Below, one piece after another: positions 11,417-63,559 of a DNA stretch of 64,000 nt. Where the stretch lies: positions 37,146-101,145 of the forward strand of contig SDNY01000001.1 of the NCBI GenBank assembly GCA_004524535.1, written 5' to 3'. The notes beneath the pieces are model-generated. The model saw only the letters and a list, made by a program, of their open reading frames with translations, was not told the DNA's origin and ran no database searches. The stretch is from Promethearchaeota archaeon. Lineage in GTDB: Archaea; Asgardarchaeota; Lokiarchaeia; Sigyniarchaeales; SOKP01. Within the stretch, counting starts at the first letter, position 1; each line of letters opens with the position of its first letter. The position numbers and the translations under genes were made by a program.

Positions 11417-11494
11417 TATCTGATGATCGATTTAAATATTTTGTAGAATAATAAGAAATCATCTTCTAATAATAAATATATTTTTCATTCTCAC

Positions 11495-47271: not shown

Positions 47272-47645
47272 CTAAGTTTCTTATATAAAGCTATTAATAA
47301 TTATTTTACCTAAAATTATGATAAGAGATTGGAAATTGATCTTTAAAAAAATAATTAGATGAAATTTTATAGAAATCAATCCTTTATTTTCTTTTTTTAC
47401 GAAAAAACCACGTTGTAAAAGTTTTTTAAAATGGTATTATGTTTTAACTCTTTTCTTTCCTAACCTTTTTATTATTTCTTGATAATTTTTAATAAGATTA
47501 TCTCTAATATCGCCCTTTTAATTTAGAAATCATATATAATAATAGATATTAAAAATGTATTAATTTCTATTATATATAACTAAAGATTTTTTTATTTAAT
47601 AAATATAAAAAAAAAAAATATAAAAGTTAAAATTTTGAAAAATTA

Positions 47646-47846
47646 GTGAAAATTATGGAGACTAAAACTTTAATTATGATGTTATTCAATGTTGCTTTAA
47701 TTTTGGCTGTTGCTGGAATCATTACAACCATAGCTCGAATTTTTATAATCTATAAACCAATAATTTTTCTTTATGTTCCAATAATCCTTATCGCACTTGG
47801 TTTACTTTTACAGATATATTTGAAAGAGAAAGAATTAACAGATTAA
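47646..47846 (+). CDS. Small two-TM membrane protein
   Basis: ORF with two hydrophobic helices. GTG at 47646 or ATG at 47655. Confidence 0.35.
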   Translation: MKIMETKTLIMMLFNVALILAVAGIITTIARIFIIYKPIIFLYVPIILIALGLLLQIYLKEKELTD

Positions 47847-47988
47847 ATACTTTTCAATTTTTTTTTTTACTTATTTCCAGAAACTTAAATCTTTATTTAA
47901 GAGCTCTAAAAAAGATTGAATTGATCTTAATCTAAAATTTTTTAGATTCTTTCAACATTTACTATTAACCTTAGCATTAATTATTTTC

Positions 47989-48891
47989 TTAAAAGATTAA
48001 CTTCATTGGTGTTTTTTCCGATATTTTTTCTCTTAATATTCTCTTACGGTAATAAGAATTTATTCCTGAGATTAATGCGATTGAAGGAACAACACATTTT
48101 GCGTATTTCACACCACCAAATAATATAAAATCACTACCTGCATCTGCACAATATGTCATAAGAGAAGCAATTGCTCCACATCGAGAACTAATTCCAAACT
48201 TTTTGACAAACTCCCACCCATATATTGCATTAGAAGGAGCAAATCCTGTAGGTAGACCTAATTCACTTTTAACTAGTCGTGTGGTTTCCACATTTATACA
48301 AATTGAAGGCAAGTCCAACACTGCCGCATCCACAATAATATTTTCAATTTGTGCTTTTTGAGACATAGGAATTAATTTTTCATTAAGTAGTTTTAATTTT
48401 TGTTCAGGAAAGATATATCTATTGCCGAAGGCTAAAAGAACAGCGTTTCTCACTCCAATATTTTTTAATTTATCTAAATTTTCATCGCTCGTGTTATCAT
48501 CAATACTATTTAATATAGCCCTGGCTAATAATCCGATTTCTTTTAATCCTTCCATTGCTGGGATCCGAATACTATCATTTAATCCATCAACTAAAAATGG
48601 ACAATCTACTATATCAGCAATGTATTCACATTGTTTTATAAGTGCTTCAGGATGCGCTCCTACAACATCAATAATCGCCTGCATCCCTGTTTCTTCTATA
48701 ATTGTTAAAAACTCGTTTAATTCTTGTTCTACTATATTTTTATCGATTCTCCCTGCCTTTTCATCTAATAGAGCTTTATGATTTTTATAAAAGACAGATC
48801 CAATCAAAACTATTGGATTTTCACCGGGTTGTCCTCCGATTTTAACATTTCCAATTTCTACTACTTTTTGGTTTTTTTCAAATTTTAGCAT
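47989..48891 (-). CDS. mtrH: MtrH-like methyltransferase (tetrahydromethanopterin S-methyltransferase subunit H family)
   Basis: The N-terminus MLKFEKNQKVVEIGNVKIGGQPGENPIVLIGSVFY closely matches the MtrH signature (F.KEQ.V.EI.G.K.GGQPGE.PT.L.G..FY). Confidence 0.75.
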   Translation of the reverse strand: MLKFEKNQKVVEIGNVKIGGQPGENPIVLIGSVFYKNHKALLDEKAGRIDKNIVEQELNEFLTIIEETGMQAIIDVVGAHPEALIKQCEYIADIVDCPFLVDGLNDSIRIPAMEGLKEIGLLARAILNSIDDNTSDENLDKLKNIGVRNAVLLAFGNRYIFPEQKLKLLNEKLIPMSQKAQIENIIVDAAVLDLPSICINVETTRLVKSELGLPTGFAPSNAIYGWEFVKKFGISSRCGAIASLMTYCADAGSDFILFGGVKYAKCVVPSIALISGINSYYRKRILREKISEKTPMKLIF

Positions 48892-48997
48892 AAACTAGTA
48901 AAGAATATCAAAAATAAAAGATATACTCTAAATTTGAGTTTGAAATAATTCTCAGGAAAACTTCCCAGTAAAGTGGAAAAATCTGGTAATAAGAAAA

Positions 48998-50323
48998 TTA
49001 ACTTTTTGTTTCAACAATATAATAATCTTTATCAAAATGTAGTTTTAACAAACAAATTCCAAGTAATACAGTAAAAATTAGATAACCAATACCCCCACCA
49101 AACAAATTAGGATAATTTGGATTCAATAATTCTATTCTGGTATCAAATGTTAAATAAATGCCTAAAATGGAAATTAATCCAATGAGTACGTATTTATTTT
49201 TTTTAATAAAATCTCTTCCTATTATATCTTGATAAAAGAAAGGTATAAAAAATAAAACAGTTAGGGGTAATAGAATTATTATAGTTTTATAAGCCAAGTG
49301 ATTTAAGAATATGAAAGCAATCGCAAAATAACTGAATTTTTCGTGTATCTTCAATTTTTTAGTTATTATTAAGAATCCTATGATTTCGTACATAAAAATC
49401 ATGAGTATAAGGTTTACTAAATATTTAGCTAAGCGCGGAATAATAAAAATCTCATCTATGAAAATTAAATAATAACACACTGAGTTTAATTGTACCCATT
49501 GAAAAAATCTAAAAACTTTGTAATAATCAAAAATAAGTTCTGGATAAATAAAAAACAGAAAATTTTGAGCTAGAAGAATTATTGCTACTAATCCATAGGT
49601 CTCAAGATTTTCTTTCTTTAATAATTCGCCAAGAGTGATATCGTGAAATATAAAGATTAATAACAAAAAAATAAAATAAGGGATCATCGAAACAATCAGA
49701 CCAAAAAGAAAATAAGTAATAAATTTATATTTGATATCTTTCTCTTTTTCTTCTTTTTTGTATTGAATTTCTCTTCTAAGGATAAATAATAATATTGTCC
49801 CTGCCAAGAATTTTGATTGATTTGTCAAAAACTGAAAATATATGAGAAATCCATTTGAAATTACCATGAGAAACAAAAATCTATGAATTTTTTCTTTAAC
49901 ACCTAATAATTTTAAGATTTTATTGAATTCTAATACGAATAAAACTGCAAAAATATAATTTAAACTATACCAGATAAAGTAAGAGATACTATAAGGCAAT
50001 AATGATAAGGATATTGCCCAAAGCATAAGGAAAAATGGTAAATATGTATTTAGAAGCCAAAATTCATTTTTTTCTTCGTAAACTCTATTTGGGTCAATTA
50101 AAAGCTGTCTTCCAGATCGATAATAAGTCCAGGAATCAGAATAATATAAATATGGGAAATGGTTCACTACAATTAAAAAATGTATTGCCCATGTGCCAAT
50201 ACATATCAACGGAATAATAATATAAAGGATTTCGTTATTTTTCTTTTTTCTAAGGTATAAAAACAAGCATATAAGGAAAAATATTAATGAAAACCATATA
50301 ATTGATAAAAAAAGAAATAGCAA
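48998..50323 (-). CDS. Array paralogue P1: polytopic membrane protein, DUF2029/GT87-like putative GT-C glycosyltransferase
   Basis: 441 aa, TTG start, loop SDSWTYYRSGRQLLIDPNRVY. C-terminal class C (IVETKS). Confidence 0.65.
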   Translation of the reverse strand: MLFLFLSIIWFSLIFFLICLFLYLRKKKNNEILYIIIPLICIGTWAIHFLIVVNHFPYLYYSDSWTYYRSGRQLLIDPNRVYEEKNEFWLLNTYLPFFLMLWAISLSLLPYSISYFIWYSLNYIFAVLFVLEFNKILKLLGVKEKIHRFLFLMVISNGFLIYFQFLTNQSKFLAGTILLFILRREIQYKKEEKEKDIKYKFITYFLFGLIVSMIPYFIFLLLIFIFHDITLGELLKKENLETYGLVAIILLAQNFLFFIYPELIFDYYKVFRFFQWVQLNSVCYYLIFIDEIFIIPRLAKYLVNLILMIFMYEIIGFLIITKKLKIHEKFSYFAIAFIFLNHLAYKTIIILLPLTVLFFIPFFYQDIIGRDFIKKNKYVLIGLISILGIYLTFDTRIELLNPNYPNLFGGGIGYLIFTVLLGICLLKLHFDKDYYIVETKS

Positions 50324-50455
50324 GGCTCATTCTCACTTTCTTTATTTCACTATTTAATGATAAAATTAATCTTTCTTTAAAAATATTGATATGAACGTCT
50401 ATAATTAATGAAATTGAAGCTTAATATATTTCTAGTTTAATTCTCTTCAGAATCA
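50324..50455 (-). repeat. Conserved inter-paralogue spacer U1 (putative promoter plus 5' UTR)
   Basis: A 132-nt spacer; a near-identical copy precedes each of the nine genes. In sense orientation it contains caatatttttaaagaaag (TATA-like) about 55 nt before the TTG. Confidence 0.6.
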
Positions 50456-51796
50456 CTATCCATCTTCCGTTTTTCTTTCAACAATATAAAAATCTTTGTC
50501 TAAATGTAGTTTTAACAAACAAATTCCCAGTAATACGGTAAAAATTAGATAACCAGCACTCCCACCAAATATATTAGGATATAATGGATTTTCTACAGGA
50601 TTAAATGGATTTACTACATTTACAGATAGATAAATACCTAAAACGGATAATAATCCAATCAGTATGTATTTATTTTTTTTAAAAAAATCTCTTCCTCTTA
50701 CATCTTGATGGAAGTAAGGAATAAAAAGTAAAAGAGTTAGGGGTAATAAAATTATTAAAGTTTTATCAGCTAAGCTATATAAAAATATGAAAGAAATTGC
50801 AAAATAGCTGAATTTTTCGTGTATCTTCAATTTTTTAGTTATTATTAAGAATCCTATGATTTCGCCCAAAATAATGAGAAGTATAAGGGAGACTATAAAT
50901 TGAGTCATGTTTGGAATAATAAAAATCTCATTTATAATAATTAAATAATAATGCACTAATCTAAATTGTAAAATTTGATAAAATTTTAAAACTTCGAAAT
51001 AATCTAAAATAAGTCCTGGATAAATAAAAAACAAAAAATTTTGAGATAAAAAAATTACTGCGACTAATCCATAGGTTTTAAGATTTTCTTTCTTAAATAA
51101 TTCGCCAAAAGGAATATCGTGAAACATAAAGATTAATAACAAAAAAATAAAATAGGGGGCCATCGTTACAATCATACAAAAAAGAAAATAAGTAATAAAC
51201 TTATATTTGAAATCTTTCTCTTTTTCTTCTTTGTTGTATTGAATTTCTCTTCTAAGGATAAATAATAATATTGCCCCTACCAAGAATTTTGATTGATTTA
51301 AAGCAAACTGGTGAAATATAAGAAATCCATTTGAAATTACCATTAGAAACAAAAATCTATGCATTTTTTCTCTAATCCCTAATAATTTTAAGATTTTATT
51401 GAATTCTAATACGAGTAAAATCGCAAAAATATAATTTAGACCATACCAAATTAAGTAAGATATATTATAAGGTAATAATGATAGAGATATTGCCCAAAGC
51501 ATAAGAAAAAATGGTAAATATATCACCCCCCAATAACCATAATCTTTTTTATAAAAGCTATTTGGGTTAATTAAAAGCTGTCTCCCAGAGTAATAGTAAA
51601 TCCCAAAATCCCAAAAAGGAATTTCTTGGTTAATGGTTACTAAAGTTAAGCAATATAGAGCCCATATGCCAATACATATCAACGGAATAATAATATAAAG
51701 GATTTCATAATTTTTCTTTTTTCTAAGGTATAAAAACAAGCATATGAGGAAAAATATTAACGATAGCCATATAATTGATAAAAACCAAATTAGCAA
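50456..51796 (-). CDS. Array paralogue P2
   Basis: 446 aa, TTG start, loop WDFGIYYYSGRQLLINPNSFY. Tail ERKTEDG (class B). Confidence 0.65.
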   Translation of the reverse strand: MLIWFLSIIWLSLIFFLICLFLYLRKKKNYEILYIIIPLICIGIWALYCLTLVTINQEIPFWDFGIYYYSGRQLLINPNSFYKKDYGYWGVIYLPFFLMLWAISLSLLPYNISYLIWYGLNYIFAILLVLEFNKILKLLGIREKMHRFLFLMVISNGFLIFHQFALNQSKFLVGAILLFILRREIQYNKEEKEKDFKYKFITYFLFCMIVTMAPYFIFLLLIFMFHDIPFGELFKKENLKTYGLVAVIFLSQNFLFFIYPGLILDYFEVLKFYQILQFRLVHYYLIIINEIFIIPNMTQFIVSLILLIILGEIIGFLIITKKLKIHEKFSYFAISFIFLYSLADKTLIILLPLTLLLFIPYFHQDVRGRDFFKKNKYILIGLLSVLGIYLSVNVVNPFNPVENPLYPNIFGGSAGYLIFTVLLGICLLKLHLDKDFYIVERKTEDG

Positions 51797-51928
51797 GACT
51801 CTATCTCACTTTCTTTATTTCACTATTTAATGATAAAATTAATCTTTCTTTAAAAATATTGATATGAACGTCTATAATTAATGAAATTGAAGCTTAATAT
51901 ATTTCTAGTTTAATTCTCTTCAGAATCA
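51797..51928 (-). repeat. Conserved spacer U2
   Basis: 132 nt, essentially identical to U1. Confidence 0.6.
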
Positions 51929-53272
51929 CTAGCCATCTTCCGTTTTTCTTTCAACAATATAAAAATCTTTGTCTAAATGTAGTTTTAACAAACAAATTCC
52001 CAGTAATACAGTAAAAATTAGGTAACCAGCACTCCCACCAAACAAATTAGGATAAAGTGGATTTTCTATAGGATAAAATAGATTTTCTACATTCACTGAT
52101 AAATAAATACCCAAAACGGAAATTAATCCAATCAATATGTATTTATTTTTTTTAAAAAAATCTCTTCCTATTTCATCTTGATGGAAGAAAGGAATAAAAA
52201 GTAAAAGAGTTAGGGGAAATAAAATTATAAGAACTCTATGAGCTAAGTGATTTAATAATATAAAAGAAAATGCAAAATAGCTGAATTTTTCTTGTATCTT
52301 CAATTTTTTAGTGATTAATAAGAATCCTATGATTTCGTACATAATAATGAGGAATATAAGGGTAAGTATAAATTTAGCTCCGTTTGGAATTATAAAAATA
52401 TCATATATAAACATAAAATAATAAAGCGCTAATCTAAATTGCAAATTTTGAAAATATCTAATAATTTTAAAATAATCAAAAATAAGTCCTGGATAAATAA
52501 TAAATAAAAAATTTTGAGCTAAAAAAATTACTGCGACTAATCCATAGGTTTTAAGATTTTCTTTCTCAAATAATTCGCTAAAAGGGATATCGTGGAATAT
52601 AAAGATTAATAACAAAAAAAGAAAAAAAGGGATCATCCCCACAATCATAACAAAAAGGAAATACGTAATAAATTTATATTTGAAATCTTTCTCTTTTTCT
52701 TCTTTGTTGTATTGAATTTCTCTTCTAAGAATAAATAATAATAGTGCACCTACGAAGAATTTTGATTGATTTAAACCAAATTGTAGAAATATAAGATAAC
52801 CATTTGAAATTACCATGAGGAACAAAAATCTATGAATTTTTTCCTTAATCTCTAATAATTTTAAGATTTTATTGAATTCTAATACGAATAAAACCGCAAA
52901 AATATAATGTAAAATATACCAGATAAAGTAAGCTACAACATAAGGCAATAATGAAATGGATATTGCCCAAAGCATAAGAAAAAATGGTAAACTTGTCATT
53001 CCCATCCAATAACCATGATCCTCTTTATAAAATCTATTTGGGTCAATTAAAAGCTGTCTCCCAGAGTAATAGTAAATCCCAAAATCAAAATAAAGAAATT
53101 TTGGGTTAAAAGATAGTATAATTAACCAATGTATCGCCCATAACCCAATAGAAATCAAGGGAATAATAATATAAAGGATTTCGTTATTTTTCTTTTTTCT
53201 AAGGTATAAAAACAAGCATATGAGGAAAAATATTAGCGATAGCCATAAAATTGATAAATAAATAAATAGCAC
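51929..53272 (-). CDS. Array paralogue P3
   Basis: 447 aa, TTG start, loop FDFGIYYYSGRQLLIDPNRFY (Asp codon at 53084..53086). Tail ERKTEDG (class B). Confidence 0.65.
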   Translation of the reverse strand: MLFIYLSILWLSLIFFLICLFLYLRKKKNNEILYIIIPLISIGLWAIHWLIILSFNPKFLYFDFGIYYYSGRQLLIDPNRFYKEDHGYWMGMTSLPFFLMLWAISISLLPYVVAYFIWYILHYIFAVLFVLEFNKILKLLEIKEKIHRFLFLMVISNGYLIFLQFGLNQSKFFVGALLLFILRREIQYNKEEKEKDFKYKFITYFLFVMIVGMIPFFLFLLLIFIFHDIPFSELFEKENLKTYGLVAVIFLAQNFLFIIYPGLIFDYFKIIRYFQNLQFRLALYYFMFIYDIFIIPNGAKFILTLIFLIIMYEIIGFLLITKKLKIQEKFSYFAFSFILLNHLAHRVLIILFPLTLLLFIPFFHQDEIGRDFFKKNKYILIGLISVLGIYLSVNVENLFYPIENPLYPNLFGGSAGYLIFTVLLGICLLKLHLDKDFYIVERKTEDG

Positions 53273-53446
53273 GGCTTACTATCACTTTCTTGTTTCAGTA
53301 TTTAATGATAAAATTAATTATTCTTTAAAAATATTGATATGAAAGGTTATACTTAATTCAATTGAAGCATAATATATTTCTAGTTTAATTCTTTTCAGAA
53401 TCACTAGCAATCCCCCGCTTTTCTCTTAATTTCTTTATAGGTCTAC
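53273..53446 (-). repeat. Conserved spacer U3, long form
   Basis: 174 nt. It is longer because P4 stops early inside the long relic of the upstream gene's tail (53385..53459). Confidence 0.6.
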
Positions 53447-54775
53447 TTAGAGTTCCTGTTTTCTTTCAACAATATAAAAATCTTTGTCTAAATACAGTTT
53501 TAACAAACAAATTCCAAGTAATATAGTAAAAATTAACCAACCAGCACTCCCACCAAACAAATTAGGATAATGTGGATTAAATCCTAATACTCCTTCCCAT
53601 GTAAAATAAATGCCTGAAACGGAAATTAATCCCATCAGTACGTATTTATTTTTTTTTATAAAATCTTTTCCTCTTACCTCTTGATAAAAGAAAGGAATAA
53701 AAAGTAAAAGAGTTAGGGGTAATAAAATTATTAGGATTCTATAAGCTAGGTAACTTAAAAATATGAAAGAAATGGCATAATAACTGAATTTTTCTTGTAT
53801 ATTCAATTTTTTAGTTATTAATAAGAAACCTATGATTACGTACATAAAAATGAGGAATATAAAGGATACTATAATTTTAGCTAGTATTGGAATAATAAAA
53901 ATCCTATTTAAGATAATTAAATAATAATTCTCTAAAAAAAGACTAAAAATATGCCATTTTTGAGAAATTAGAAAAAAATCAAAAATAAGTCTTGGATAAA
54001 TAATAAACAAAAAATTTTGAGCTAGAAAAATTGATCCTACTAATCCATAGGTTTTAAGATTTTCTTTCTCAAATAATTCGCCAAAAGGGATATCGTGAAA
54101 GATAAAAATTAATAACAAAAAAAGAAAAAAAGGGATCATCCCAACAATCATACAAAAAAGAAAATAAGTAATAAATTTATATTTGAAATCTTTCACTCTT
54201 TCTTCTTTTTTGTATTGAATTTCTCTTCTAAGGATAAAAAATAATAGTGTCCCTACGATGAATTTTGATTGATTGCTAAAAAATTGAAGATATATGAGAT
54301 AACCATTTGAAGTTACCATGAGAAACAAAAATCTATGAATTTTTTCTTTAATCCCTAATAATTTTAAGATTTTATTGAATTCTAATACGAGTAAAACCGC
54401 AAAAATATAATTTAAACCATACCAGATAAAGTAAGATATCCTATAAGGCAATAATGAGAGCGATGTTGCCCAAAACATAGGAAAAAATGGTAAATATATC
54501 ATTCCTGTCGAGTCACCATTTTTTTCTATGTACAATCTATTAGGGTCAATTAAAAGCTGTCTACCTGAGTAATAATAAATAGAAAAATCTATATAAGCAT
54601 TTAATGGGAAAAAATATGCTACAATTAAACTATGTATCGCCCATATGCCAATACAAATCAAGGGGATAATAATATAAAGGATTTCGTTATTTTTCTTTTT
54701 TCTAAGATATAAAAACAAGCATATAAGGAAAAGTATTAACGATAGCCATATAATTGATAAAAACCGAAATAGCAA
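53447..54775 (-). CDS. Array paralogue P4
   Basis: 442 aa, TTG start, loop IDFSIYYYSGRQLLIDPNRLY. Tail ERKQEL (class A). Confidence 0.65.
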   Translation of the reverse strand: MLFRFLSIIWLSLILFLICLFLYLRKKKNNEILYIIIPLICIGIWAIHSLIVAYFFPLNAYIDFSIYYYSGRQLLIDPNRLYIEKNGDSTGMIYLPFFPMFWATSLSLLPYRISYFIWYGLNYIFAVLLVLEFNKILKLLGIKEKIHRFLFLMVTSNGYLIYLQFFSNQSKFIVGTLLFFILRREIQYKKEERVKDFKYKFITYFLFCMIVGMIPFFLFLLLIFIFHDIPFGELFEKENLKTYGLVGSIFLAQNFLFIIYPRLIFDFFLISQKWHIFSLFLENYYLIILNRIFIIPILAKIIVSFIFLIFMYVIIGFLLITKKLNIQEKFSYYAISFIFLSYLAYRILIILLPLTLLLFIPFFYQEVRGKDFIKKNKYVLMGLISVSGIYFTWEGVLGFNPHYPNLFGGSAGWLIFTILLGICLLKLYLDKDFYIVERKQEL

Positions 54776-54907
54776 GGCTCTATCTCACTTTCTTTATTTC
54801 ACTATTTAATGATAAAATTAACCTTTCTTTAAAAATATTGATATAAAAGGCTATAATTAATTCATTTGAATCTTAATATATTTCTAGATTAATTTTCTTC
54901 AGAATTA
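54776..54907 (-). repeat. Conserved spacer U4
   Basis: 132 nt, same sequence family. Confidence 0.6.
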
Positions 54908-56269
54908 CTAGCAATCTTCCGTTTTTCTTTCAACAATATGAAAATCTTTATCTAAATGTAGTTTTAATAAACAAATTCCAAGTAATATAGTAAAAATTAA
55001 CCAACCAGCACTCCCACCAAACAAATTAGGATAATATGAATATGGATTTAATATATTTAATCTTGTCTCACTGGTTAAATTAATGTCATATGTTAAATAA
55101 ATGCCTAAAACAGAAATTAATCCAATCAGTACGTATTTATTTTTTTTAATAAAATTTCTCCCTATTTCATCTTGATGGAAGAAAGGAATAAAAAGTAAAA
55201 GAGTTAAGGGGATTAGAACTATCAAAGTTTTAAAAGCTATGCTATTTAAAAATATGAAAGAAATTGCAAAATAGCTGAATTTTTCGTGTATCTTCAATTT
55301 TTTAGTTATTAATAAGAATCCTATGATTTCGTACAGAATAATGAGAAATATAACGGAGACTATAACTTTAACTGCGATTGGAATAATAAAAATCTCATGT
55401 ATAAAAGTTAAATAATAAAACGCTAAGCTAATTTGGTAAATTTGATAATATCTAAAAATTATGAAATAATAATCAAAAATAAGTCTTGGATAAATAATAA
55501 ATAAAAAATTTTGAGATAGAAAAATTACTGCGACTAATCCATAGGTTTTAAGATTTTCTTTCTCAAATAATTCGCTAAAAGGGATATCGTGAAAGATAGA
55601 GATTAATAAAAAAAAAATAAAATAAGGGACCATCCCAATAATCATACCAAAAAGAAAATAAGTAATAAATTTATATTTGAAATCTTTCTCTTTTTCTTCT
55701 TTGTTGTATTGAATTTCTCTTCTAAGGATAAATAATAATAGTGCACATACGAAGAATTTTGATTGATTTAAAGCAAATTGCATAATTATGAGAAATCCAT
55801 TTGAAATTACTATGAGAAACAAAAATCTATTAATTTTTTCTTTCACACCTAATAATTTTAAGATTTTATTGAATTCTAATACGAGTAAAGCTGCAAAAAT
55901 ATAATTTACCCCATACCAGATAAAATAAGCTATGTGATAAGGGAATAATGAAATGGATATTGCCCAAAGCATACCAAAAAATGGTAAACATGGGATTGAG
56001 TCCCAGTAATAAGGATGTTCTCTGTAAAATTTATTAGGGTCAATTAAAAGCTGTCTACTAGGGTAATAGTAAATCCCAAAATCAGAATAAAAAAATCTTG
56101 GGTTAAAGTATAGTATAATTAACCAATGTATCGCCCAGAGACCAATACAAATCAACGGAATAATTATATAAAGTATTTCATTATTTTTCTTTTTTCTAAG
56201 GTATAAAAACAAGCATATAAGGAAAAATATTAATGAAAACCATATAATTGATAAAAAAAGAAATAGCAA
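54908..56269 (-). CDS. Array paralogue P5
   Basis: 453 aa, TTG start, loop SDFGIYYYPSRQLLIDPNKFY. Tail ERKTEDC (class B). Confidence 0.65.
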   Translation of the reverse strand: MLFLFLSIIWFSLIFFLICLFLYLRKKKNNEILYIIIPLICIGLWAIHWLIILYFNPRFFYSDFGIYYYPSRQLLIDPNKFYREHPYYWDSIPCLPFFGMLWAISISLFPYHIAYFIWYGVNYIFAALLVLEFNKILKLLGVKEKINRFLFLIVISNGFLIIMQFALNQSKFFVCALLLFILRREIQYNKEEKEKDFKYKFITYFLFGMIIGMVPYFIFFLLISIFHDIPFSELFEKENLKTYGLVAVIFLSQNFLFIIYPRLIFDYYFIIFRYYQIYQISLAFYYLTFIHEIFIIPIAVKVIVSVIFLIILYEIIGFLLITKKLKIHEKFSYFAISFIFLNSIAFKTLIVLIPLTLLLFIPFFHQDEIGRNFIKKNKYVLIGLISVLGIYLTYDINLTSETRLNILNPYSYYPNLFGGSAGWLIFTILLGICLLKLHLDKDFHIVERKTEDC

Positions 56270-56404
56270 GGCTCAATCTCACTTTCTTTATTTCACTATT
56301 TAATGATAAAATTAATCTTTCTTTAAAAATATTGATATGAAAGGCTATACTTAATTCAATTGAAGCTTAATATATTTCTAGTTTAATTCTCTTCAGAATC
56401 ATTA
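56270..56404 (-). repeat. Conserved spacer U5
   Basis: 135 nt, same sequence family. Confidence 0.6.
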
Positions 56405-57733
56405 TCAATCTTCCGTTTTTCTTTCAACAATATAAAAATCTTTGTCTAAATGTAGTTTTAATAAGCAAATTCCAAGTAAAACAGTAAAAATTAACCAACC
56501 AGCATTCCCACCAAACAAATTAGGATAATGTAGATTTATTGGTACTATTCCATCCCATGTTAAATAAATACCTAAAACGGAAATTAATCCAATCAATATA
56601 TATTTATTTTTTTTAATAAAATCTATTTCTATTTCATCTTGATGGAAGAAAGGAATAAAAAGTAAAAGGATTAGGGGTAATAAAATTATTAAAATTTTAA
56701 AAGCTAAATAATTTAAAAAGATGAAAGAAAGTGCAAAATAACTGAATTTTTCGTGTATCTTCAATTTTTTAGTTATTAATAAGAATCCTATGATTACGTA
56801 CATTAAAATGAGGAATATAAGGGAGACTATAATTCTAGCTATAATTGGAATAAAAAAAATCTTATTTATAAAAATTAAATAATAATGTGGTAAAAAAAAC
56901 TGTAAATTATGAAAATATTGAGAAATTAGAAAAAAATCAAAAATAAGTCCTGGATATATAAAAAATAAAAAATTTTGAGCTAGAAAAATTAATAACACTA
57001 ATCCATAGGTTTTAAGATTTTCTTTCTCAAATAATTTGCCAAAAGGGATATCGTGAAAGATAAAGATTAATAATAAAAAAAGAAAATAAGGAATCATTCC
57101 CACAATCATAACAAAAAGAAAATAAGTAATAAATTTATATTTGAAATCTTTCTCTTTTTCTTCTTTTTTGTATTGAATTTCTCTTCTAAGGATAAAAAAT
57201 AATATTGCCCCTACGAAGAATTTTGATTGACTAAAAAAAAATTGAAAAAATATGAGAAATCCATTTGAAATTACTATGAGAAATAAAAATCTATGAATTT
57301 TTTCTTTTACACCTAATAATTTTAAGATTTTATTGAATTCTAATATGAATAAAACCGCAAAAATATAATTTAAGATATACCAGATAAAGTAAGAGATATA
57401 ATAAGGCAATAATGAGAGCGATATTGCCCAAAGCATAAGGAAAAATGGTAAATATGCTATTGTAACAAATAAGCTACTTCTTTTTTTGTATAATCTATTG
57501 GGGTCAATTAATAGCTGTCTACCAGAGTAATAATATATATCAAAATCATAATAAGAAATTTGTGGATTATGGTATACAATAATTAAGCTATGTATTGCCC
57601 AAATGCCAATACAAATCAATGGAATAATAATATAAAGGATTTCAATATTCTTCTTTTTTCTAAAGTATAAAAACAAGTATATAAGGAATAATATTAACGA
57701 TAGCCATATAATTGATAAATTACGAGGTATCAA
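56405..57733 (-). CDS. Array paralogue P6
   Basis: 442 aa, TTG start, loop YDFDIYYYSGRQLLIDPNRLY. Tail ERKTED (class B). Confidence 0.65.
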   Translation of the reverse strand: MIPRNLSIIWLSLILFLIYLFLYFRKKKNIEILYIIIPLICIGIWAIHSLIIVYHNPQISYYDFDIYYYSGRQLLIDPNRLYKKRSSLFVTIAYLPFFLMLWAISLSLLPYYISYFIWYILNYIFAVLFILEFNKILKLLGVKEKIHRFLFLIVISNGFLIFFQFFFSQSKFFVGAILFFILRREIQYKKEEKEKDFKYKFITYFLFVMIVGMIPYFLFLLLIFIFHDIPFGKLFEKENLKTYGLVLLIFLAQNFLFFIYPGLIFDFFLISQYFHNLQFFLPHYYLIFINKIFFIPIIARIIVSLIFLILMYVIIGFLLITKKLKIHEKFSYFALSFIFLNYLAFKILIILLPLILLLFIPFFHQDEIEIDFIKKNKYILIGLISVLGIYLTWDGIVPINLHYPNLFGGNAGWLIFTVLLGICLLKLHLDKDFYIVERKTED

Positions 57734-57867
57734 ATTTCACTTTCACTTTTTCTGTTTCACTATTTAATTATAAAATTAATCTTTCTTTAAAAATATTAAT
57801 ATGAAAGGCTATAATTAATTCAATTGAAGCTTAATATATTTATAATTTAATTCTCTTCAGAATCACA
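57734..57867 (-). repeat. Conserved spacer U6
   Basis: 134 nt, same sequence family. Confidence 0.6.
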
Positions 57868-59190
57868 TTAATCTTCCGTTTTTCTTTCAACAATATAAAA
57901 ATCTTTGTCTAAATGTAGTTTTAATAAACAAAATCCAAGTAATAAAGTGAAAAATAGATAACCAGCAGTCCCAAAAAACAAATTAGGATAAAAGGTGTTT
58001 TGTTTTTCTATTGTTAAATAAATTCCCAAAACGGAAAGTAATCCAATCAGTACGTATTTGTTATTATTAATAAAATCTCTTCCAATTGCATCTTGATGGA
58101 AGTAAGGAATAAAAAGTAAAAGAATTAAGGGGAATAGAATTATTATAGTTTTATAAGCTAAGGTATTCGTTAATAAGAAAGAAAGTGCAAAATAGCTGAA
58201 TTTTTCGTGGATCTTCAATTTTTTAGTAATTAATAAGAATGCTATAATTACGTACATAAGAATTATGAGTATAAAGGAGATTATAAATTTAGTTTCGAGT
58301 GGAATATAAAAAATCTTTTTAATGAAAACTAAATAATAACACAATGATTTTAATTGTATAGATTGAAAATATCTAAAAACTATGAAATAATAATCAAAAA
58401 TAAGTCTTGGATAAATAATAAGTAAAAAATTTTGAGATAGAAAAATAACTGCGACTAATCCATAGGTTTTTAGATTTTCTTTCTCAAATAATTTGCCAAA
58501 AGGGATATCGTGAAAGATAAAGATTAATAATAAAAAAAGAAAATAAGGAATCATTCCCACAATCATAGCAAAAAGAAAATAAGTAATAAATTTATATTTG
58601 AAATCTTTCTCTTTTTCTTCTTTTTTGTATTGAATTTCTCTTCTAAGGATAAAAAATAATATGACTCCTACGAAGAATTTTGATTGATTTAATGCAAATT
58701 GATGAATTATAAGCCATCCATTTGAAATTACCATGAGAAACAAAAATCTATGAATTTTTTCTTTAAGTCCTAATAATTTTAAGATTTTATTGAATTCTAA
58801 TATGAATAAAATCGCAAAAATATAATGTAAACCATACCAAACAAAATAGGATATATTATAAGGTAATAATGAAATGGATATTGCCCAAAGCATACAAAAA
58901 AATGGTAAAGATGTTATTCCAATCCAAGAACCATAATTTTCTCTGTAAAATCTATTTGGGTCAATTAAAAGCTGTCTCCCTGAGTAATAATAAACACCAA
59001 AATCCCAAAAAGGAAGTTTCTGGCGAATGTATATTACAATTAACCAATGTATCGCCCAGATGGCAATACATATTATTGGGATAATAATATAAAGGATTTC
59101 ATTATTTTTCTTTTTTCTAAGGTATAAAAACAAGCAAATAAGGAAAAATATTAACGATAGCCATATAAATAATAAAAATCGTAATATCAA
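57868..59190 (-). CDS. Array paralogue P7
   Basis: 440 aa, TTG start, loop WDFGVYYYSGRQLLIDPNRFY. Tail ERKTED (class B). Most similar overall to P8. Confidence 0.65.
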   Translation of the reverse strand: MILRFLLFIWLSLIFFLICLFLYLRKKKNNEILYIIIPIICIAIWAIHWLIVIYIRQKLPFWDFGVYYYSGRQLLIDPNRFYRENYGSWIGITSLPFFCMLWAISISLLPYNISYFVWYGLHYIFAILFILEFNKILKLLGLKEKIHRFLFLMVISNGWLIIHQFALNQSKFFVGVILFFILRREIQYKKEEKEKDFKYKFITYFLFAMIVGMIPYFLFLLLIFIFHDIPFGKLFEKENLKTYGLVAVIFLSQNFLLIIYPRLIFDYYFIVFRYFQSIQLKSLCYYLVFIKKIFYIPLETKFIISFILIILMYVIIAFLLITKKLKIHEKFSYFALSFLLTNTLAYKTIIILFPLILLLFIPYFHQDAIGRDFINNNKYVLIGLLSVLGIYLTIEKQNTFYPNLFFGTAGYLFFTLLLGFCLLKLHLDKDFYIVERKTED

Positions 59191-59276
59191 GGCTCGCTCT
59201 TACTATTTTTATTTCAATATTTAATGATAAAATTAATTATTCTTTAAAAATATTGATATGAAAGGCTATAATTAAT
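59191..59276 (-). repeat. Conserved spacer U7, truncated
   Basis: Only the promoter-proximal ~86 nt match the spacer family. Unique sequence follows (59277..59489). Confidence 0.55.
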
Positions 59277-59489
59277 TCTCTACATAAGTATGGATATGAT
59301 GTATCAGACGATGAGATAGAGGCTGTATAAAGGATCATTAAAAATGATGTTTTAATGGGTTACAAGACAATCTCCTTTTGGGCGATTGATCCAAGCGAAT
59401 ATAATGATTTAATTGAAAATTTGAAATAATTCTCAGAATAATTATCCGGTACAGATAAGGAATCTAGAAATTCTACCTTATAAAAAAAA

Positions 59490-60803
59490 TTAACTTTTTG
59501 TTTCAACAATATAAAAATCTTTGTCTAAATGTAGTTTTAACAAGCAAATTCCAAGTAATAAAGTGAAAATTAGGTAACCAGCAGTCCCAAAAAACAAATT
59601 AGGATAAAATGGATTTTCTACTCCCTCTGTTAAATAAATACATAAAACGGAAAGTAATCCAATCAGTACGTATTTATTATTTTTAATAAAATCTTTTCCG
59701 ATTTCATCTTGGTGCAAGAAAGGAATAAAAATTAAAAGAATTAAGGGGAATAGAATTATTAAAGTTTTTTCAGCTAAGGTATTCGTTAATAAGAAAGAAA
59801 GCGCAAAATAGCTGAATTTTTCGTGTATCTTAAATTTTTTAGTTATTAATAAGAATGCTATGATTACGTACATGAAAATGAGGCGTATAAAGGAGAGTAT
59901 AAATTTAGCTCTGGGCGGAATAAAAAAAATCTTTTTAATGAAAACTAAATAATAACCCAATGAGTATAATTGTACCCCTTGAAAATATCTAAAAACATGG
60001 TAATAATCAAAAATAAGTCCAGGATAAATAAAAAACAAAAAATTTTGAGCTAGAAAAATTATTATCACTAATCCATAGGTTTTAAGATTTTCTTTCTCAA
60101 ATAATTCTCCAAGAGGGATATCGTGAAATATAAAGATTAATAACAAAAAAAGAAAAAAAGGGATCATCCCCACAATCATAACAAAAAGAAAATAAGTAAT
60201 AAATTTATATTTGAAATCTTTCTCTTTTTCTTCTTTTTTGTATTGAATTTCTCTTCTAAGGATAAATAATAATAGTGCTCCTACGAAGAATTTTGATTGA
60301 TTTAAAGCAAATTGTAGAAATATAAGATAACCATTTGATATTACCATGAGGAACAAAAATCTATGAATTTTTTCTTTAACACCTAATAATTTTAAGATTT
60401 TATTAAATTCCAATATGAATAAGACTGCACAAATATAATGAAAACCATACCAAACAAAGTAAGCTATATTATAAGGTAATAATGAAATCGATATTGCCCA
60501 TAGCATACAAAAAAATGGTAAAGATGTTATTCCAACCCAAAAACCATAATCTTCTTTGTAAAATCTATTTGGGTCAATTAAAAGCTGTCTACCTGAGTAA
60601 TAATAAACACCAAAATCCCAAAAAGGAATATTCTGACGAATATATATTATAATTAAACTATGTAGTGCCCAGATGCCAATACATATCATTGGGATAATAA
60701 TATAAAGAATCTCATTATTCTTCTTTTTTCTAAGGTATAAAAACAAGCATATAAGAAAGAATATTAACGATAGCCATATAATTGGTAAAATATAATGAAG
60801 CAA
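59490..60803 (-). CDS. Array paralogue P8
   Basis: 437 aa, TTG start, loop WDFGVYYYSGRQLLIDPNRFY. C-terminal class C (IVETKS), as in P1. Confidence 0.65.
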   Translation of the reverse strand: MLHYILPIIWLSLIFFLICLFLYLRKKKNNEILYIIIPMICIGIWALHSLIIIYIRQNIPFWDFGVYYYSGRQLLIDPNRFYKEDYGFWVGITSLPFFCMLWAISISLLPYNIAYFVWYGFHYICAVLFILEFNKILKLLGVKEKIHRFLFLMVISNGYLIFLQFALNQSKFFVGALLLFILRREIQYKKEEKEKDFKYKFITYFLFVMIVGMIPFFLFLLLIFIFHDIPLGELFEKENLKTYGLVIIIFLAQNFLFFIYPGLIFDYYHVFRYFQGVQLYSLGYYLVFIKKIFFIPPRAKFILSFIRLIFMYVIIAFLLITKKFKIHEKFSYFALSFLLTNTLAEKTLIILFPLILLIFIPFLHQDEIGKDFIKNNKYVLIGLLSVLCIYLTEGVENPFYPNLFFGTAGYLIFTLLLGICLLKLHLDKDFYIVETKS

Positions 60804-60971
60804 GGCTCACTCTTACTTTTTTGTTTCACTATTTAATGATAAAATTAATGATTCTTTAAAAATATTAATATGAAAGGCTATAATTAATTAAATTGAAGCT
60901 TAATATATTTCTAGTTTAATTCTCTTCAAAATCACTAGCAATCCCCTGTTTTTCTTTTAATTTCTTGCTAA
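60804..60971 (-). repeat. Conserved spacer U8, long form
   Basis: 168 nt. It includes most of the long relic (60916..60984), which overlaps the P9 stop codon. Confidence 0.6.
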
Positions 60972-62339
60972 TTAAACTTCCTGTTTTCTTTCAACAATAT
61001 AAAAATCTTTGTTTAAATACAGTTTTAACAAACAAATTCCAAGTAATACTGTAAAAATTAGGAGACCAGTACCCCCACCAAACAAGTCAGGATAATGTAG
61101 ATTTAATCCTTCCATAGTGACATTTGATAAATAAATACCCAAAACGGAAATTAATCCAATCAGTACGAATTTATTTTTTTTAATAAAATCTCTTCCAATT
61201 TCATCTTGGTGCAAGAAAGGAATAAAAAGTAAAAGAATTAAGGGGAATAGAATTATAAAAGTTCTTTCAACTAAGCAATTTAAAAATATGAAAGAAATTG
61301 CGAAATAGCTGAATTTTTCGTGGATCTTCAATTTTTTAGTTATTAATAAGAATCCTATGATTTCGTACAGAATAATAAGGAGTATAAGGGAGATTATAAA
61401 TTTAGCAGCATTTGGAATAATAAAATTCGTATTAATAAAAGCTAAATAATATAACGCTAAGCTAAATTGTAATCCTTGATAATCCCTAAAAATTTTGAAA
61501 TAATCAAAAATAAGTCCTGGATAAATAATAAATAAAAAATTTTGACCTAGAAAAATTAATGTTACTATTCCATAGGTTTTAAGATTTTCTTTCTTAAATA
61601 ATTTACCAAAAGGGATATCGTGAAAGATAAAGATTAACAACAAAAAAATAAAATAAGGGTCCATCCCAACAATCATAACAAAAAGAAAATAAGTACTAAA
61701 CTTATATTTGAAATCTTTCTGTTTTTCTTCTTTGTTGTATTGAATTTCTCTTCTAAGGATAAATAATAATATTGTGCCTAACAAGAATTTTGATTGATTT
61801 AAAGCAAATTGGAAAAGTATGAGATTTCCATTTGAAATTACCATAAGAAACAAAAATCTATGAATTTTTTCTTTAATCCCTAATAATTTTAAGATTTTAT
61901 TAAATTCTAATACGAATAAAACCGCAGAAATATAATGTAAAATATACCAGATAAAGTAAGATATAATATAGGGCAATAATGAGAGAGATATTGCCCAAAG
62001 CATAAGAAAAAATGGTAAACTTGTTATTGCCCAAGTGCCATGCTTTTTTTGGTAAAATCTATTTGGGTCAATTAAAAGCTGTCTCCCAGCGAAATAGTAA
62101 AACCCAAAATCAGTATAAGGAACCCCCTGATAAGCCCAAATCCCATAATCATAATAATCTACTTTAAACCAACCAAAATATAATAAAATTAACCAATGTA
62201 TCGCCCACATGCCAATACATATCAACGGGATAATAATATAAAGGATTTCATTATTTTTCTTTTTTCTAAGGTATAAAAACAAGCATATGAGGAATATTAT
62301 TAACGATAGCCATATAATTGATAAAAACCAAAATAGCAA
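60972..62339 (-). CDS. Array paralogue P9
   Basis: 455 aa, TTG start, extended first loop (GWFKVDYYDYGIWAYQGVPYTDFGFYYFAGRQLLIDPNRFY). Tail ERKQEV (class A). Confidence 0.65.
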   Translation of the reverse strand: MLFWFLSIIWLSLIIFLICLFLYLRKKKNNEILYIIIPLICIGMWAIHWLILLYFGWFKVDYYDYGIWAYQGVPYTDFGFYYFAGRQLLIDPNRFYQKKHGTWAITSLPFFLMLWAISLSLLPYIISYFIWYILHYISAVLFVLEFNKILKLLGIKEKIHRFLFLMVISNGNLILFQFALNQSKFLLGTILLFILRREIQYNKEEKQKDFKYKFSTYFLFVMIVGMDPYFIFLLLIFIFHDIPFGKLFKKENLKTYGIVTLIFLGQNFLFIIYPGLIFDYFKIFRDYQGLQFSLALYYLAFINTNFIIPNAAKFIISLILLIILYEIIGFLLITKKLKIHEKFSYFAISFIFLNCLVERTFIILFPLILLLFIPFLHQDEIGRDFIKKNKFVLIGLISVLGIYLSNVTMEGLNLHYPDLFGGGTGLLIFTVLLGICLLKLYLNKDFYIVERKQEV

Positions 62340-62452
62340 AGCTCTCTCTCACTTTCTTTATTTCACTATTTAATGATAAAATTAATCTTTCTTTAAAAAT
62401 ATTGATATGAAAGGCTATAATTAATTAAATTGAAGCTTAATATATTTCTAGT
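62340..62452 (-). repeat. Founder copy of the spacer (U9), between the sortase-like gene and P9
   Basis: 113 nt, same sequence family as U1-U8. Confidence 0.6.
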
Positions 62453-63559
62453 TTAATTCTCTTCAGAATCACTAGCAATCTTCCGCTTTTCTTTTAATTT
62501 CTTGCTAATTAAAGTTCCTGTATAAATTATAGAGAGAATAAATTCTGGGATCCATTTATGCATTAATAATACGATTATTGCAGCTATAAAAGAGCTCGCA
62601 GCGCTTATAGAATAATGAATATCATTCCAGGCATATCCCAAATAAAATAAATATAGTTGTATGATCATTCGGATTATATTTACGACATAAAATATTATTG
62701 ACGAAATAATCAGAGATTTTGTTTTCCTCCAGATAATATCTTCATTTGTTTTACGATCTCGAGAATGAGGTGTAAAAATAATAATCCCTGCGAAAACGCA
62801 AATTGCTTGAACCCCCGTACAAAAGGTTTCGAAATCTATTGGTCCCCTATCAGGTATAATAAATCTCCAATGATATGTTGATTCAGGTGAATAAACAGCT
62901 TTAGCGTCCATATCAAATAATAAATTCAAAAAAAAAACGGTCTGCTTCACTACAATTTCATGTAGCCAATAATTCATCTCTGTATCAAAGAATAAATATA
63001 CTAAATATGCTAACACGGGTGCACCAATCGCTAGTATTGCAATTGAACGAATAGTGAAATAATATTTTTTTCCTTCAAATTCTATGACAGGACTGTCTAT
63101 CTCTCCTTTTTTGTTCTCATTTTTGAGAGAAGTTTCGTTTAATTCTTTATCCCTAGCATGTCTTAAATAGTAATGAAACCTATCAATGATAATATAGTTG
63201 AGAATTATTAATAAAGGAATCATTATTAAGCCCATATTATATCTTGTCGTTAATTTTGATTCCATTAAAGGAATTGTTGCCCCAATAATAAAAGCAAATA
63301 ATAAATTAATTGTCAACATTAACCATATTGATACTTTCTTTTTAAGTATTTGAACCATAGCATCTATCTTTAGAAAATTTAATACTAAATAAGTAAAAAT
63401 TATAGATATTATCATAATAATAAATCCAAATATGAAACTATTTACAGTCATTATTGTGAATAAATATAACCCAATAAAAAAAGCAACTAATAAATTAATT
63501 GACTGTAGTCCCCATATTATGATTTTCCTATTAATTATCTTTTCCATGGTATCTCTCAT
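62453..63559 (-). CDS. Exosortase/archaeosortase-family-like polytopic membrane protein
   Basis: The C-terminal half carries, in order, FETFCTGVQAICVF (Cys in a C-S/T-G context), VVNIIRMIIQ (N-x-x-R) and NDIHYSISAASSF (His). This matches the Cys/Arg/His order of exosortase/archaeosortase domains. The N-terminal half has duplicated TM hairpins. Confidence 0.5.
   Translation of the reverse strand: MRDTMEKIINRKIIIWGLQSINLLVAFFIGLYLFTIMTVNSFIFGFIIMIISIIFTYLVLNFLKIDAMVQILKKKVSIWLMLTINLLFAFIIGATIPLMESKLTTRYNMGLIMIPLLIILNYIIIDRFHYYLRHARDKELNETSLKNENKKGEIDSPVIEFEGKKYYFTIRSIAILAIGAPVLAYLVYLFFDTEMNYWLHEIVVKQTVFFLNLLFDMDAKAVYSPESTYHWRFIIPDRGPIDFETFCTGVQAICVFAGIIIFTPHSRDRKTNEDIIWRKTKSLIISSIIFYVVNIIRMIIQLYLFYLGYAWNDIHYSISAASSFIAAIIVLLMHKWIPEFILSIIYTGTLISKKLKEKRKIASDSEEN

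Follow-up and report, generated by a model that had tools for sequence, protein, structure and literature searches.

Nine head-to-tail paralogs of a predicted membrane glycosyltransferase family follow the archaeosortase H gene (ArtH) in the genome of a Promethearchaeota archaeon (Lokiarchaeia; GenBank assembly GCA_004524535.1), and the joints between them carry copied pieces of the 3' end of ArtH. The window analyzed here is a stretch of 64,000 nt (contig SDNY01000001.1, positions 37,146 to 101,145 of the forward strand). On its minus strand, between 48.9 and 63.6 kb, the 368-aa ArtH gene (62453-63559) is followed by nine copies of 437-455 aa, all direct repeats on the same strand with a period of 1457-1613 nt (GenBank locus tags EU529_00405-00445). 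Numbering follows an earlier sequence-only reading of this DNA, from P9 (60972-62339) down to P1 (48998-50323). That reading had proposed a repeated unit composed of ArtH tail, spacer and paralog, which stands at seven of the eight joints of the array; the remaining joint, P8/P7, is of another type. The junction sequences are very probably fossils of the building of a tandem array, not functional elements in their own right.

Breakpoints were set to the nucleotide by local alignment of 62340-62560, in minus-strand sense, with each inter-paralog junction. At the two class A joints, homology begins at the same ArtH base: 62521 pairs with 60984 at P9/P8 (168/180 identical, 93.3%) and with 53459 at P4/P3 (160/175 identical, 91.4%, including a 6-nt insertion). 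At P9/P8 it continues unbroken through the ArtH stop codon (62453-55) and the whole 113-nt spacer to the next start codon. The recurrence of the last ~69 nt of ArtH behind P9 and P4, first noticed from the letters alone, is thereby confirmed. The five class B joints (P7/P6, P6/P5, P5/P4, P3/P2 and P2/P1) are 90.9-95.5% identical over 154-157 columns, and their homology begins within TT[G/A]AAAGAAAA (ArtH 62497-62487), a stretch common to the paralog 3' end and the ArtH tail; the unambiguously ArtH-derived part is 33 nt (62485-62453), followed by the spacer. This agrees with the shortened version reported behind P2, P3, P5, P6 and P7, the copy at P7 having 32 nt. The 33-mer has six matches at three or fewer mismatches and the 36-mer upstream of it has two, against 0.00 expected for each in shuffled sequence (100 shuffles for the 33-mer). 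The similarity is not a matter of low-complexity A/T runs, and it crosses the ArtH stop codon. Tandem duplication of a segment X...Y makes one new joint, Y/X, and the joints here fuse sequences that are not adjacent in the parental layout, namely the last codons of a paralog with ArtH position -69 (class A) or -33 (class B). Both parental flanks survive, P1 keeping its native end (VETKS, then stop) and native flank, and an intact ArtH preceding P9.

The relics are read one base off the ArtH frame. Bases that read ACA GGA ACT TTA ATT in ArtH are read by P9 as CAG GAA GTT TAA, giving the end ERKQEV, and class B reads ACG GAA GAT TGC TAG, giving ERKTED(C/G). The frame change, and the ERKQEV/ERKQEL and ERKTED(G/C) tails ascribed to it, had been recognized correctly; the idea that the relic makes the paralog terminate early fails, since relic-encoded tails are two to three residues longer than the native VETKS ends of P1 and P8. 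Because the replaced residues lie in a short, variable tail that is modeled with low confidence (predicted local distance difference test, pLDDT, <50 for residues 435-441), the frame-shifted ends are probably harmless. The features of the locus are collected in Table 1.

Table 1. Features of the ArtH-array region, in window coordinates, listed from ArtH to its ancestral downstream neighbor
Feature	Position	Strand	Remark
ArtH gene	62453..63559	-	Stop TAA is the left edge of the inserted array; NF041736 match
Source segment: last 22 ArtH codons and stop (TGTLISKKLKEKRKIASDSEEN, stop)	62453..62521	-	Copied into junctions
ArtH-proximal spacer, long form, 113 nt	62340..62452	-	Recurs at every junction
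P9, 455 aa, end ERKQEV and stop read from relic	60972..62339	-	L001 ortholog 96.8% nucleotide identity
Class A relic behind P9, 69 nt	60916..60984	-	63/69 identical to ArtH tail
P8, 437 aa, native C-terminus VETKS and stop	59490..60803	-	
Native 3' flank of P8	59288..59489	-	Plus strand: decayed convergent gene (C-terminus)
Probable short ArtH-tail relic, class C joint (P8/P7)	59272..59287	-	TTATGTAGAGAATTAA vs ArtH TTCTGAAGAGAATTAA
Short-form spacer upstream of P7	59191..59271	-	79/86 identical to 62426-62341
P7, 440 aa, end ERKTED and stop	57868..59190	-	Ortholog L048a 93.5% identical
Class B relic behind P7, 32 nt, 1-nt deletion	57847..57878	-	
P6, 442 aa, end ERKTED and stop	56405..57733	-	Ortholog L048b 95.0% identical
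Class B relic behind P6, 33 nt	56383..56415	-	
P5, 453 aa, end ERKTEDC and stop	54908..56269	-	Ortholog L048c 94.2% identical
Class B relic behind P5, 33 nt	54889..54921	-	
P4, 442 aa, end ERKQEL and stop	53447..54775	-	
Class A relic behind P4, 75 nt (69 nt and a 6-nt insertion)	53385..53459	-	
P3, 447 aa, end ERKTEDG and stop	51929..53272	-	
Class B relic behind P3, 33 nt	51910..51942	-	
P2, 446 aa, end ERKTEDG and stop	50456..51796	-	
Class B relic behind P2, 33 nt	50437..50469	-	128-nt run identical to P3/P2 junction
P1, 441 aa, last copy, native end VETKS and stop	48998..50323	-	
Native paralog 3' flank kept behind P1, right array edge	48941..48997	-	Common to P8 and L049 flanks
Remnant of ancestral ArtH-MtrH intergenic region	48892..48940	-	Aligns with L058 just upstream of MtrH start
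MtrH-like methyltransferase gene, ancestral downstream neighbor of ArtH	47989..48891	-	Pfam MtrH 6.9e-60

Class A (P9/P8) and class B relics differ in length by 34 nt. Neither of the present class A copies gave rise to class B: both have GGGGATT and the spacer haplotype GAAT[AC]ATT, where class B reads GGAAGATT and GAAAGATT. The sequence-only reading attributed class B to a deletion of ~36 nt between short direct repeats. These repeats, TTGAAAGAAAA and TTAAAAGAAAA, are indeed present, but the length is 34 nt and an independent join would give the same product. Such a second illegitimate recombination, between the paralog end TTGAAAGAAAA and the ArtH-tail sequence TTAAAAGAAAA (62497-62487), is possible, and we entertain it tentatively: the two sites form a microhomology of 11 in 12 nt, CGGAAGATT is common to class B and the ArtH gene of the window while both class A copies have CGGGGGATT/CAGGGGATT, and class B travels with the other spacer haplotype. 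Yet a class A joint in which the two repeats slipped would end up as the same product. Outgroups show GGG to be the ancestral state of ArtH, so that the AAG of class B is more readily accounted for as a mutation of the relic that passed into ArtH afterwards than as an ArtH state taken up by class B. The copies next to class B joints had also diverged long before the window lineage separated from that of L001, a contig of a relative.

At P8/P7, the native VETKS end of P8 is followed by ~200 nt of its native 3' flank; no more than ~10-16 nt of ArtH tail come next, and the spacer behind them is 31 nt shorter than the long form. About 165 nt of the flank are common to that of a solitary copy on another contig (L049), and its first ~57 nt are common to the P1 flank. 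The flank gives way to TTATGTAGAGAATTAA-TTATAGCC, which matches the joint between ArtH stop and spacer in sister strains (GAAGAGAATTAATTATAG in L001, L002 and L059), where 31 nt of spacer between two AATTAA repeats are missing; AGAGAATTAATTATAGCCT is identical to this joint in L059 and near-identical to that in L001. The comparison was made post hoc, and the anchored positions beyond the spacer part agree at 8/10. We regard P8/P7 as a probable third join that retained ~10-16 nt of ArtH. Three types of joint are thus present, and no single founding event accounts for all of them; at least two independent join events are needed because P8/P7 is of another type. On the plus strand, the P8 flank reads as the decayed C-terminus of a convergent gene (...LHKYGYDVSDDEIEAV, an internal stop, RIIKNDVLMGYKTISFWAIDPSEYNDLIENLK, stop) that is homologous to the L049 flank (1804-1953, minus strand); Pfam and NCBIfam searches with it returned only noise (E >= 0.1) and no family.

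Comparison with relatives shows what the locus looks like without an array. Scanning genome contigs for ArtH gave 44 species-representative GTDB Asgard loci, and an MtrH-like gene directly follows ArtH in 34 of these, spanning Loki-, Hod-, Hermod- and Odin-type genomes, as well as in L058, an ENA contig with the gene order peptidase M42, DUF998, ArtH, MtrH and an ArtH of 86% protein identity. Homology between the window and L058 stops at 62454, within the ArtH stop codon of the window (second base), and resumes at 48940, 57 nt past the P1 stop. Between these points L058 has nine further ArtH codons (...EENYSDSNEKKK, stop) and 12 nt, with no trace of paralog 5' or 3' flanks. In a neighbor-joining tree of ArtH nucleotide sequences, L058 falls outside (window,(L056,(L001,L059))). 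A paralog occurs within 10 kb of ArtH at one of the 44 loci only (L004, on the same contig as L001, a 91%-identical relative); the metagenome contig L056 (ArtH 87% identity) also bears one near ArtH. Because of the empty site in L058 and the ArtH-MtrH order at 34/44 loci, we identify the 13,513-nt block 48941-62453, on comparative grounds, as a lineage-specific insertion that truncated ArtH by nine codons and supplied its present stop. Since the array was inserted into an otherwise conserved pair, the adjacency of ArtH and array appears as a secondary accident of insertion that implies no functional link. The earlier proposal that ArtH and the founder paralog were adjacent before amplification therefore holds for the time before those joints formed, although the adjacency itself was acquired.

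The alternative that L058 lost an array secondarily, ArtH-paralog adjacency being ancestral for the clade, is improbable. It draws on the ArtH nucleotide identities to the window, at 88.7% for L058 hardly lower than the 89.4% of L056, and on a weakly determined root; the many direct repeats would also ease deletion. A deletion between relics, however, cannot restore the nine extra ArtH codons and 12 nt of L058 or remove every paralog flank, and the direct ArtH-MtrH adjacency across four lineage types is likewise at odds with it. Insertion into the ArtH-MtrH gap has parallels: unrelated genes stand between ArtH and MtrH at 4 further loci of the 44, and this gap has been invaded repeatedly across Asgard genomes. 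The intervening genes encode an MBL-fold (metallo-beta-lactamase) protein, tetratricopeptide repeat (TPR) proteins and a GH3-like glycosidase, and the invaded gaps are L005 1284-2998, L007 11032-12175, L008 11047-13012 and L045 2179-4950. The conserved order, seen at 34 of the 44 loci, continues from ArtH and the MtrH-like gene to an AIR-synthase-related gene like 'methanogenesis marker 2' ~1.5 kb on (window 46315-48891, 62453-63559); in the window both the MtrH-like methyltransferase gene and this marker-like gene lie downstream of P1.

The sequence of the array spacers also precedes, as a 5' flank, the solitary copies L049 and L052, which sit behind unrelated genes without ArtH; because the same flank occurs there, away from ArtH, the spacer is by this comparison the paralog's own native 5' flank, and it presumably carries the promoter and ribosome-binding site of P9. 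L049 (GCA_048887025.1, 2725 nt) holds its paralog between a Ras-like GTPase gene and a proteasome alpha-subunit gene, and possibly resembles the donor locus of the array founder; in L052 (Ga0209536_100213186) the paralog stands behind a 231-aa gene. An ArtH-tail relic upstream of these two copies was suspected by eye and rejected, the match not being significant: shuffled sequences scored as high in 172/2000 and 951/2000 cases. At the edges of the insertion (62450-62454 and 48937-48941) there are short possible microhomologies with target and donor-like flanks, TTA(A) on the left and AACT on the right, and these very short matches fit microhomology-mediated insertion.

These observations suggest a stepwise origin of the array. 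In an ancestor of this Asgard (Promethearchaeota/Lokiarchaeia-type) lineage, a unit of ~1.7 kb landed between ArtH and its MtrH-like neighbor, as the comparison with relatives shows, with loss of the last nine ArtH codons and creation of a new TAA at the joint; the unit comprised a gene for a membrane protein of glycosyltransferase C (GT-C) fold, the ~110 nt of 5' flank native to that gene and part of its 3' flank. A second event, the anatomy of which is preserved and the mechanism of which we infer, would then have joined a paralog end (...GTTGAAAGAAA) to ArtH position -69 (ACAGGAAC...) at a microhomology of 1-2 nt, duplicating ArtH tail, spacer and paralog and producing the class A joint, where copied ArtH codons in the paralog frame would provide three to four new residues and a stop. 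Because the joined ends share only 1-2 nt, this founding event is best understood as illegitimate, not as homologous unequal crossing-over. The sequence-only reading had the array produced by unequal crossing-over at the junction, a process that would spread a joint once an illegitimate event had made it. Homologous unequal crossing-over anywhere in the 1.5-kb unit may then have expanded the array, with copies inheriting the joint. Class B would have arisen either by loss of 34 nt between the direct repeats or by a second join at the same microhomology, and the third join, at P8/P7, would have put the final ~10-16 nt of ArtH behind ~200 nt of native 3' flank.

Divergence among the copies (synonymous, dS, ~0.28; nonsynonymous, dN, ~0.15; dN/dS 0.54) points to an old array. 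Orthologs of P9 in L001, and of P7, P6 and P5 in L048, are 93.5-96.8% identical and stand in the same order with the same joints. Because these orthologs are closer to one another than the paralogs are (82-89%), and because order and joints are kept, the array is older than the split of the lineages of the window, L001 and L048, its copies having diverged since they arose. Exchange between junctions seems to have continued. A run of 128 nt is identical between the P2/P1 and P3/P2 junctions, where flanking coding sequence is only 84-88% identical, and the window and L001 show 20 differences in ~155 nt (62482-62328) versus 9 in the next ~360 nt; in 17 of these 20 cases the window agrees with the majority of its own remaining units. 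The ArtH genes of L058, L001, L002 and L059 all read CGGGGGATTGTT (RGIV), while that of the window reads CGGAAGATTGCT (RKIA), which is the class B relic state at all three sites, with no other change in those 33 nt. Since the copies beside class B joints diverged long before the lineages split, it is likely that the live ArtH gene had its 3' end converted by a class B junction, RGIV becoming RKIA. This would be the latest step in the history of the locus, in which junctions exchange by gene conversion and, judging from three rooted sites and clustered differences, KRGIV of ArtH became KRKIA. A separate exchange concerns paralog 5' ends: the first paralog of L001 and L059 starts TTGCTTCATTAT... 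(MLHY...) like P8 of the window and unlike P9, to which the rest is 97-99% identical (window 62328-62339 compared with L001 11177-11195 and window 60792-60803), a pattern which indicates that 5' ends have been exchanged between copies in one lineage.

Several observations weigh against this history. The conversion into ArtH rests on three nucleotide sites, and the root of the ArtH tree depends on distant outgroups (~65% identity). P8 is closest to P7 and not to P1, an unexpected result under the simplest block-duplication scenarios, and P1 keeps 57 nt of native flank against ~200 nt for P8, which requires an extra deletion at the right edge. Paralog similarities form a star-like matrix of 82-89% nucleotide identity in which the best partner shifts from one 150-nt segment to the next; with trees star-like and mosaic, an order of duplication was sought from paralog similarity and none is claimed. 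Comparison with loci of fewer copies, which the earlier reading had called for, yielded the zero-copy site of L058 but no one-copy ArtH locus, the L001 and L056 contigs ending inside the first paralog. A metagenome scan with the paralog alignment found six loci, none with a complete joint between two paralogs. Finally, the window belongs to a metagenome-assembled contig of 110 kb built from short reads, and related assemblies break at the repeat, which raises the question of a chimeric or mis-collapsed contig. We judge an artifact of this kind very unlikely: the copies differ by 11-18% and are separable, each joint has private substitutions, L048 (GCA_048887025.1, another metagenome-assembled genome) reproduces P7, P6 and P5 with the same class B joints at 93.5-95% identity, and L003 (Logan SRR7615342) is 100% identical over 64000-62447, reproducing the ArtH tail.

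A functional role of the shared sequence was also weighed. Relics and spacers have diverged about half as much (p ~0.10-0.12) as synonymous coding sites (pS ~0.23), which could speak for a terminator or regulatory site kept or gained independently behind ArtH and the paralogs. This explanation is nevertheless hard to credit, as the similarity is collinear over 146-182 nt and includes coding sequence read in another frame, the native-ended P1 and P8 lack it, and an Rfam scan of the whole window gave no matches. The excess conservation is explained instead by promoter and ribosome-binding-site function of the spacer, which probably accounts for part of it, together with gene conversion.

The donor of the relics, called sortase-like in the sequence-only reading, is archaeosortase H and not a sortase. 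It scores 334.4 bits (2.7e-100) with NCBIfam NF041736, for which the cutoff is 200, and 32.9 with the family signature TIGR04178 (cutoff 23), and it has 533 homologs in Asgard; its entry in the protein collection uses a 364-aa start in place of the 368-aa one. The ArtH N-terminal domain model NF041739 matches twice in the N-terminal half, and an internal duplication (~63030-63320) comprises two ~100-nt segments with ~73-74% nucleotide self-similarity. The matches to equivalog model and family signature place ArtH beside ArtA-ArtG of the exosortase/archaeosortase family, from which it differs in that its conserved partner is the MtrH-like gene, not the paralog array. A transpeptidase role on a C-terminal sorting signal is putative; a literature search on archaeosortase H found no specific paper.

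Because the tail motif ...IIYTGTLISKKLKEK... (TGTLISKKLKEK) is conserved in array-free ArtH orthologs of 55-90% identity and the array-free L058 carries the same 68 nt, the tail is native to ArtH, and the direction of copying runs from ArtH to the junctions. The NCBIfam ArtH model spans residues up to 357, and native-ended paralogs are without the tail (P1 and P8, ending VETKS; the solitary L049, ending VERKR; distant homologs P0131-P0145). The reverse direction, in which the junction sequence belonged to the paralog unit and ArtH acquired its tail from it, can claim that the last three variable sites of the ArtH tail look relic-derived, and hence some flow from relic to gene, but it is scarcely tenable against this conservation and the absence of significant upstream matches in L049 and L052, and for the whole 69-nt segment it is refuted.

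Duplication followed by expansion is reportedly the subject of work by Roth and Andersson on the lac systems of E. coli and Salmonella. A two-step model, in which a rare duplication makes a novel join and homologous recombination then expands the array, is established in bacteria (PMC2656507). The present array resembles such amplifications in its head-to-tail units, in a joint that fuses non-adjacent sequences with little or no founding homology (1-2 nt for class A), in the inheritance of this joint by most copies and in the survival of the empty parental layout in relatives. In contrast to the transient, selected and unstable amplifications of bacteria, it is old, fixed and retained in the lineages sampled (dS ~0.28), lies in an Asgard archaeon, has three joint types and consists of copies that have diverged as paralogs. 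Partial-gene relics and chimeric gene ends are known from the boundaries of segmental and tandem duplications, and tandem families show concerted evolution by gene conversion. Here too a fragment of a neighboring gene was duplicated with the unit and is read in another frame as new C-terminal residues, and relics and parent gene are similar enough for exchange, pseudogene-to-gene conversion being the closest analog. The differences are that the fragment is only 33-69 nt long and that the apparent relic-to-parent conversion alters two residues of a live archaeosortase; we know of no described archaeal case of such an exchange, from a literature search that was not exhaustive.

The mechanism is an ordinary one of known kind, a classic tandem-duplication scar in a clean and well-resolved example, and no new kind of biology. 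Its value is that of a rare nucleotide-resolved history of gene-family expansion in Asgard, from insertion through a founding illegitimate joint, expansion and divergence to gene conversion, and of a case in which the gene of origin was apparently changed by its own non-coding relic. The annotation is corrected, the upstream gene being archaeosortase H and the array an unannotated family with a predicted GT-C fold. The repeat explains why related assemblies break at this locus, and the locus warns that the adjacency of ArtH and array is no evidence of a functional link.

The paralog family is tiny and confined to Asgard, with 36 proteins at E<=1e-5 in a collection of 5.8 billion proteins. Its best curated family match, GT87, stayed below threshold (E 0.054, 13.7 bits against a cutoff of 25); for 29 family members Pfam gave no match at E<=0.01, and neither NCBIfam nor a sequence profile search of the PDB gave one at threshold. 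An AlphaFold (AF2) model built from the 29 members (pLDDT 84.3; predicted template modeling score, pTM, 0.86) has a polytopic GT-C fold according to Foldseek matches in the PDB to 9wno_A (E 1.5e-4), 9dm5 and 9ub7_B/8imx_U (probability 1.0, template modeling score 0.47-0.58). The matched structures are GT-C enzymes, namely GPI (glycosylphosphatidylinositol) mannosyltransferase I, PIG-U, PimE, ALG3, ArnT and PglB. D63 (Y-x-D-F-G-I-Y-Y), in the first loop after the second transmembrane helix, is conserved in at least 90% of the 29 members and by analogy may be catalytic. The paralogs share fold and near-invariant first-loop Asp with PimE (GT87), PIG-M/Gpi14 (GT50) and PIG-U, whereas sequence identity to the structural matches is 10-14%. 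Homologs at 53-55% identity are single-copy and lie in glycan clusters with GT2, GT4, AftA_N, GT87, a Wzx-like flippase and DegT. On fold and context, the paralogs are most likely polyprenyl-phosphate-sugar-dependent glycosyltransferases acting outside the membrane.

Variation among the nine copies is concentrated in three segments (codons ~31-120, 271-330 and 391-420), which would fit diverging acceptor specificity. A more speculative proposal is that nine diversifying PIG-M/PIG-U/PimE-like GT-C enzymes make variant glycolipid or glycan acceptors for surface proteins processed by ArtH. If this were true, the locus would be an Asgard analog of GPI-type anchoring with built-in variability, in which relics keep the array recombining and its copy number flexible while ArtH remains undamaged. 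We consider such coupling of ArtH and array very unlikely because the two stand side by side in one small clade only, as the outcome of an insertion into the conserved ArtH-MtrH pair.

Some further features of the paralogs concern their reading frames and their most variable regions. The start codons (48998-62339) are TTG in eight of the nine copies and GTG in one. GenBank annotates several copies 38 codons shorter (403-415 aa); these upstream 38 codons show protein-level conservation (nonsynonymous, pN, 0.095 vs pS 0.23), which suggests that the longer open reading frames are correct. Within codons ~271-330 (e.g. 52300-52480 in P3), a predicted loop or helix region of lower pLDDT, one 30-codon interval has pN 0.25 vs pS 0.21, which may reflect diversifying selection or relaxed constraint. 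P9 (61150-62200) and its L001 ortholog (11306-11420) carry a 14-residue insertion, GWFKVDYYDYGIWA, that is absent from the other eight copies and lies in the first extracytoplasmic loop, beside the conserved Asp.

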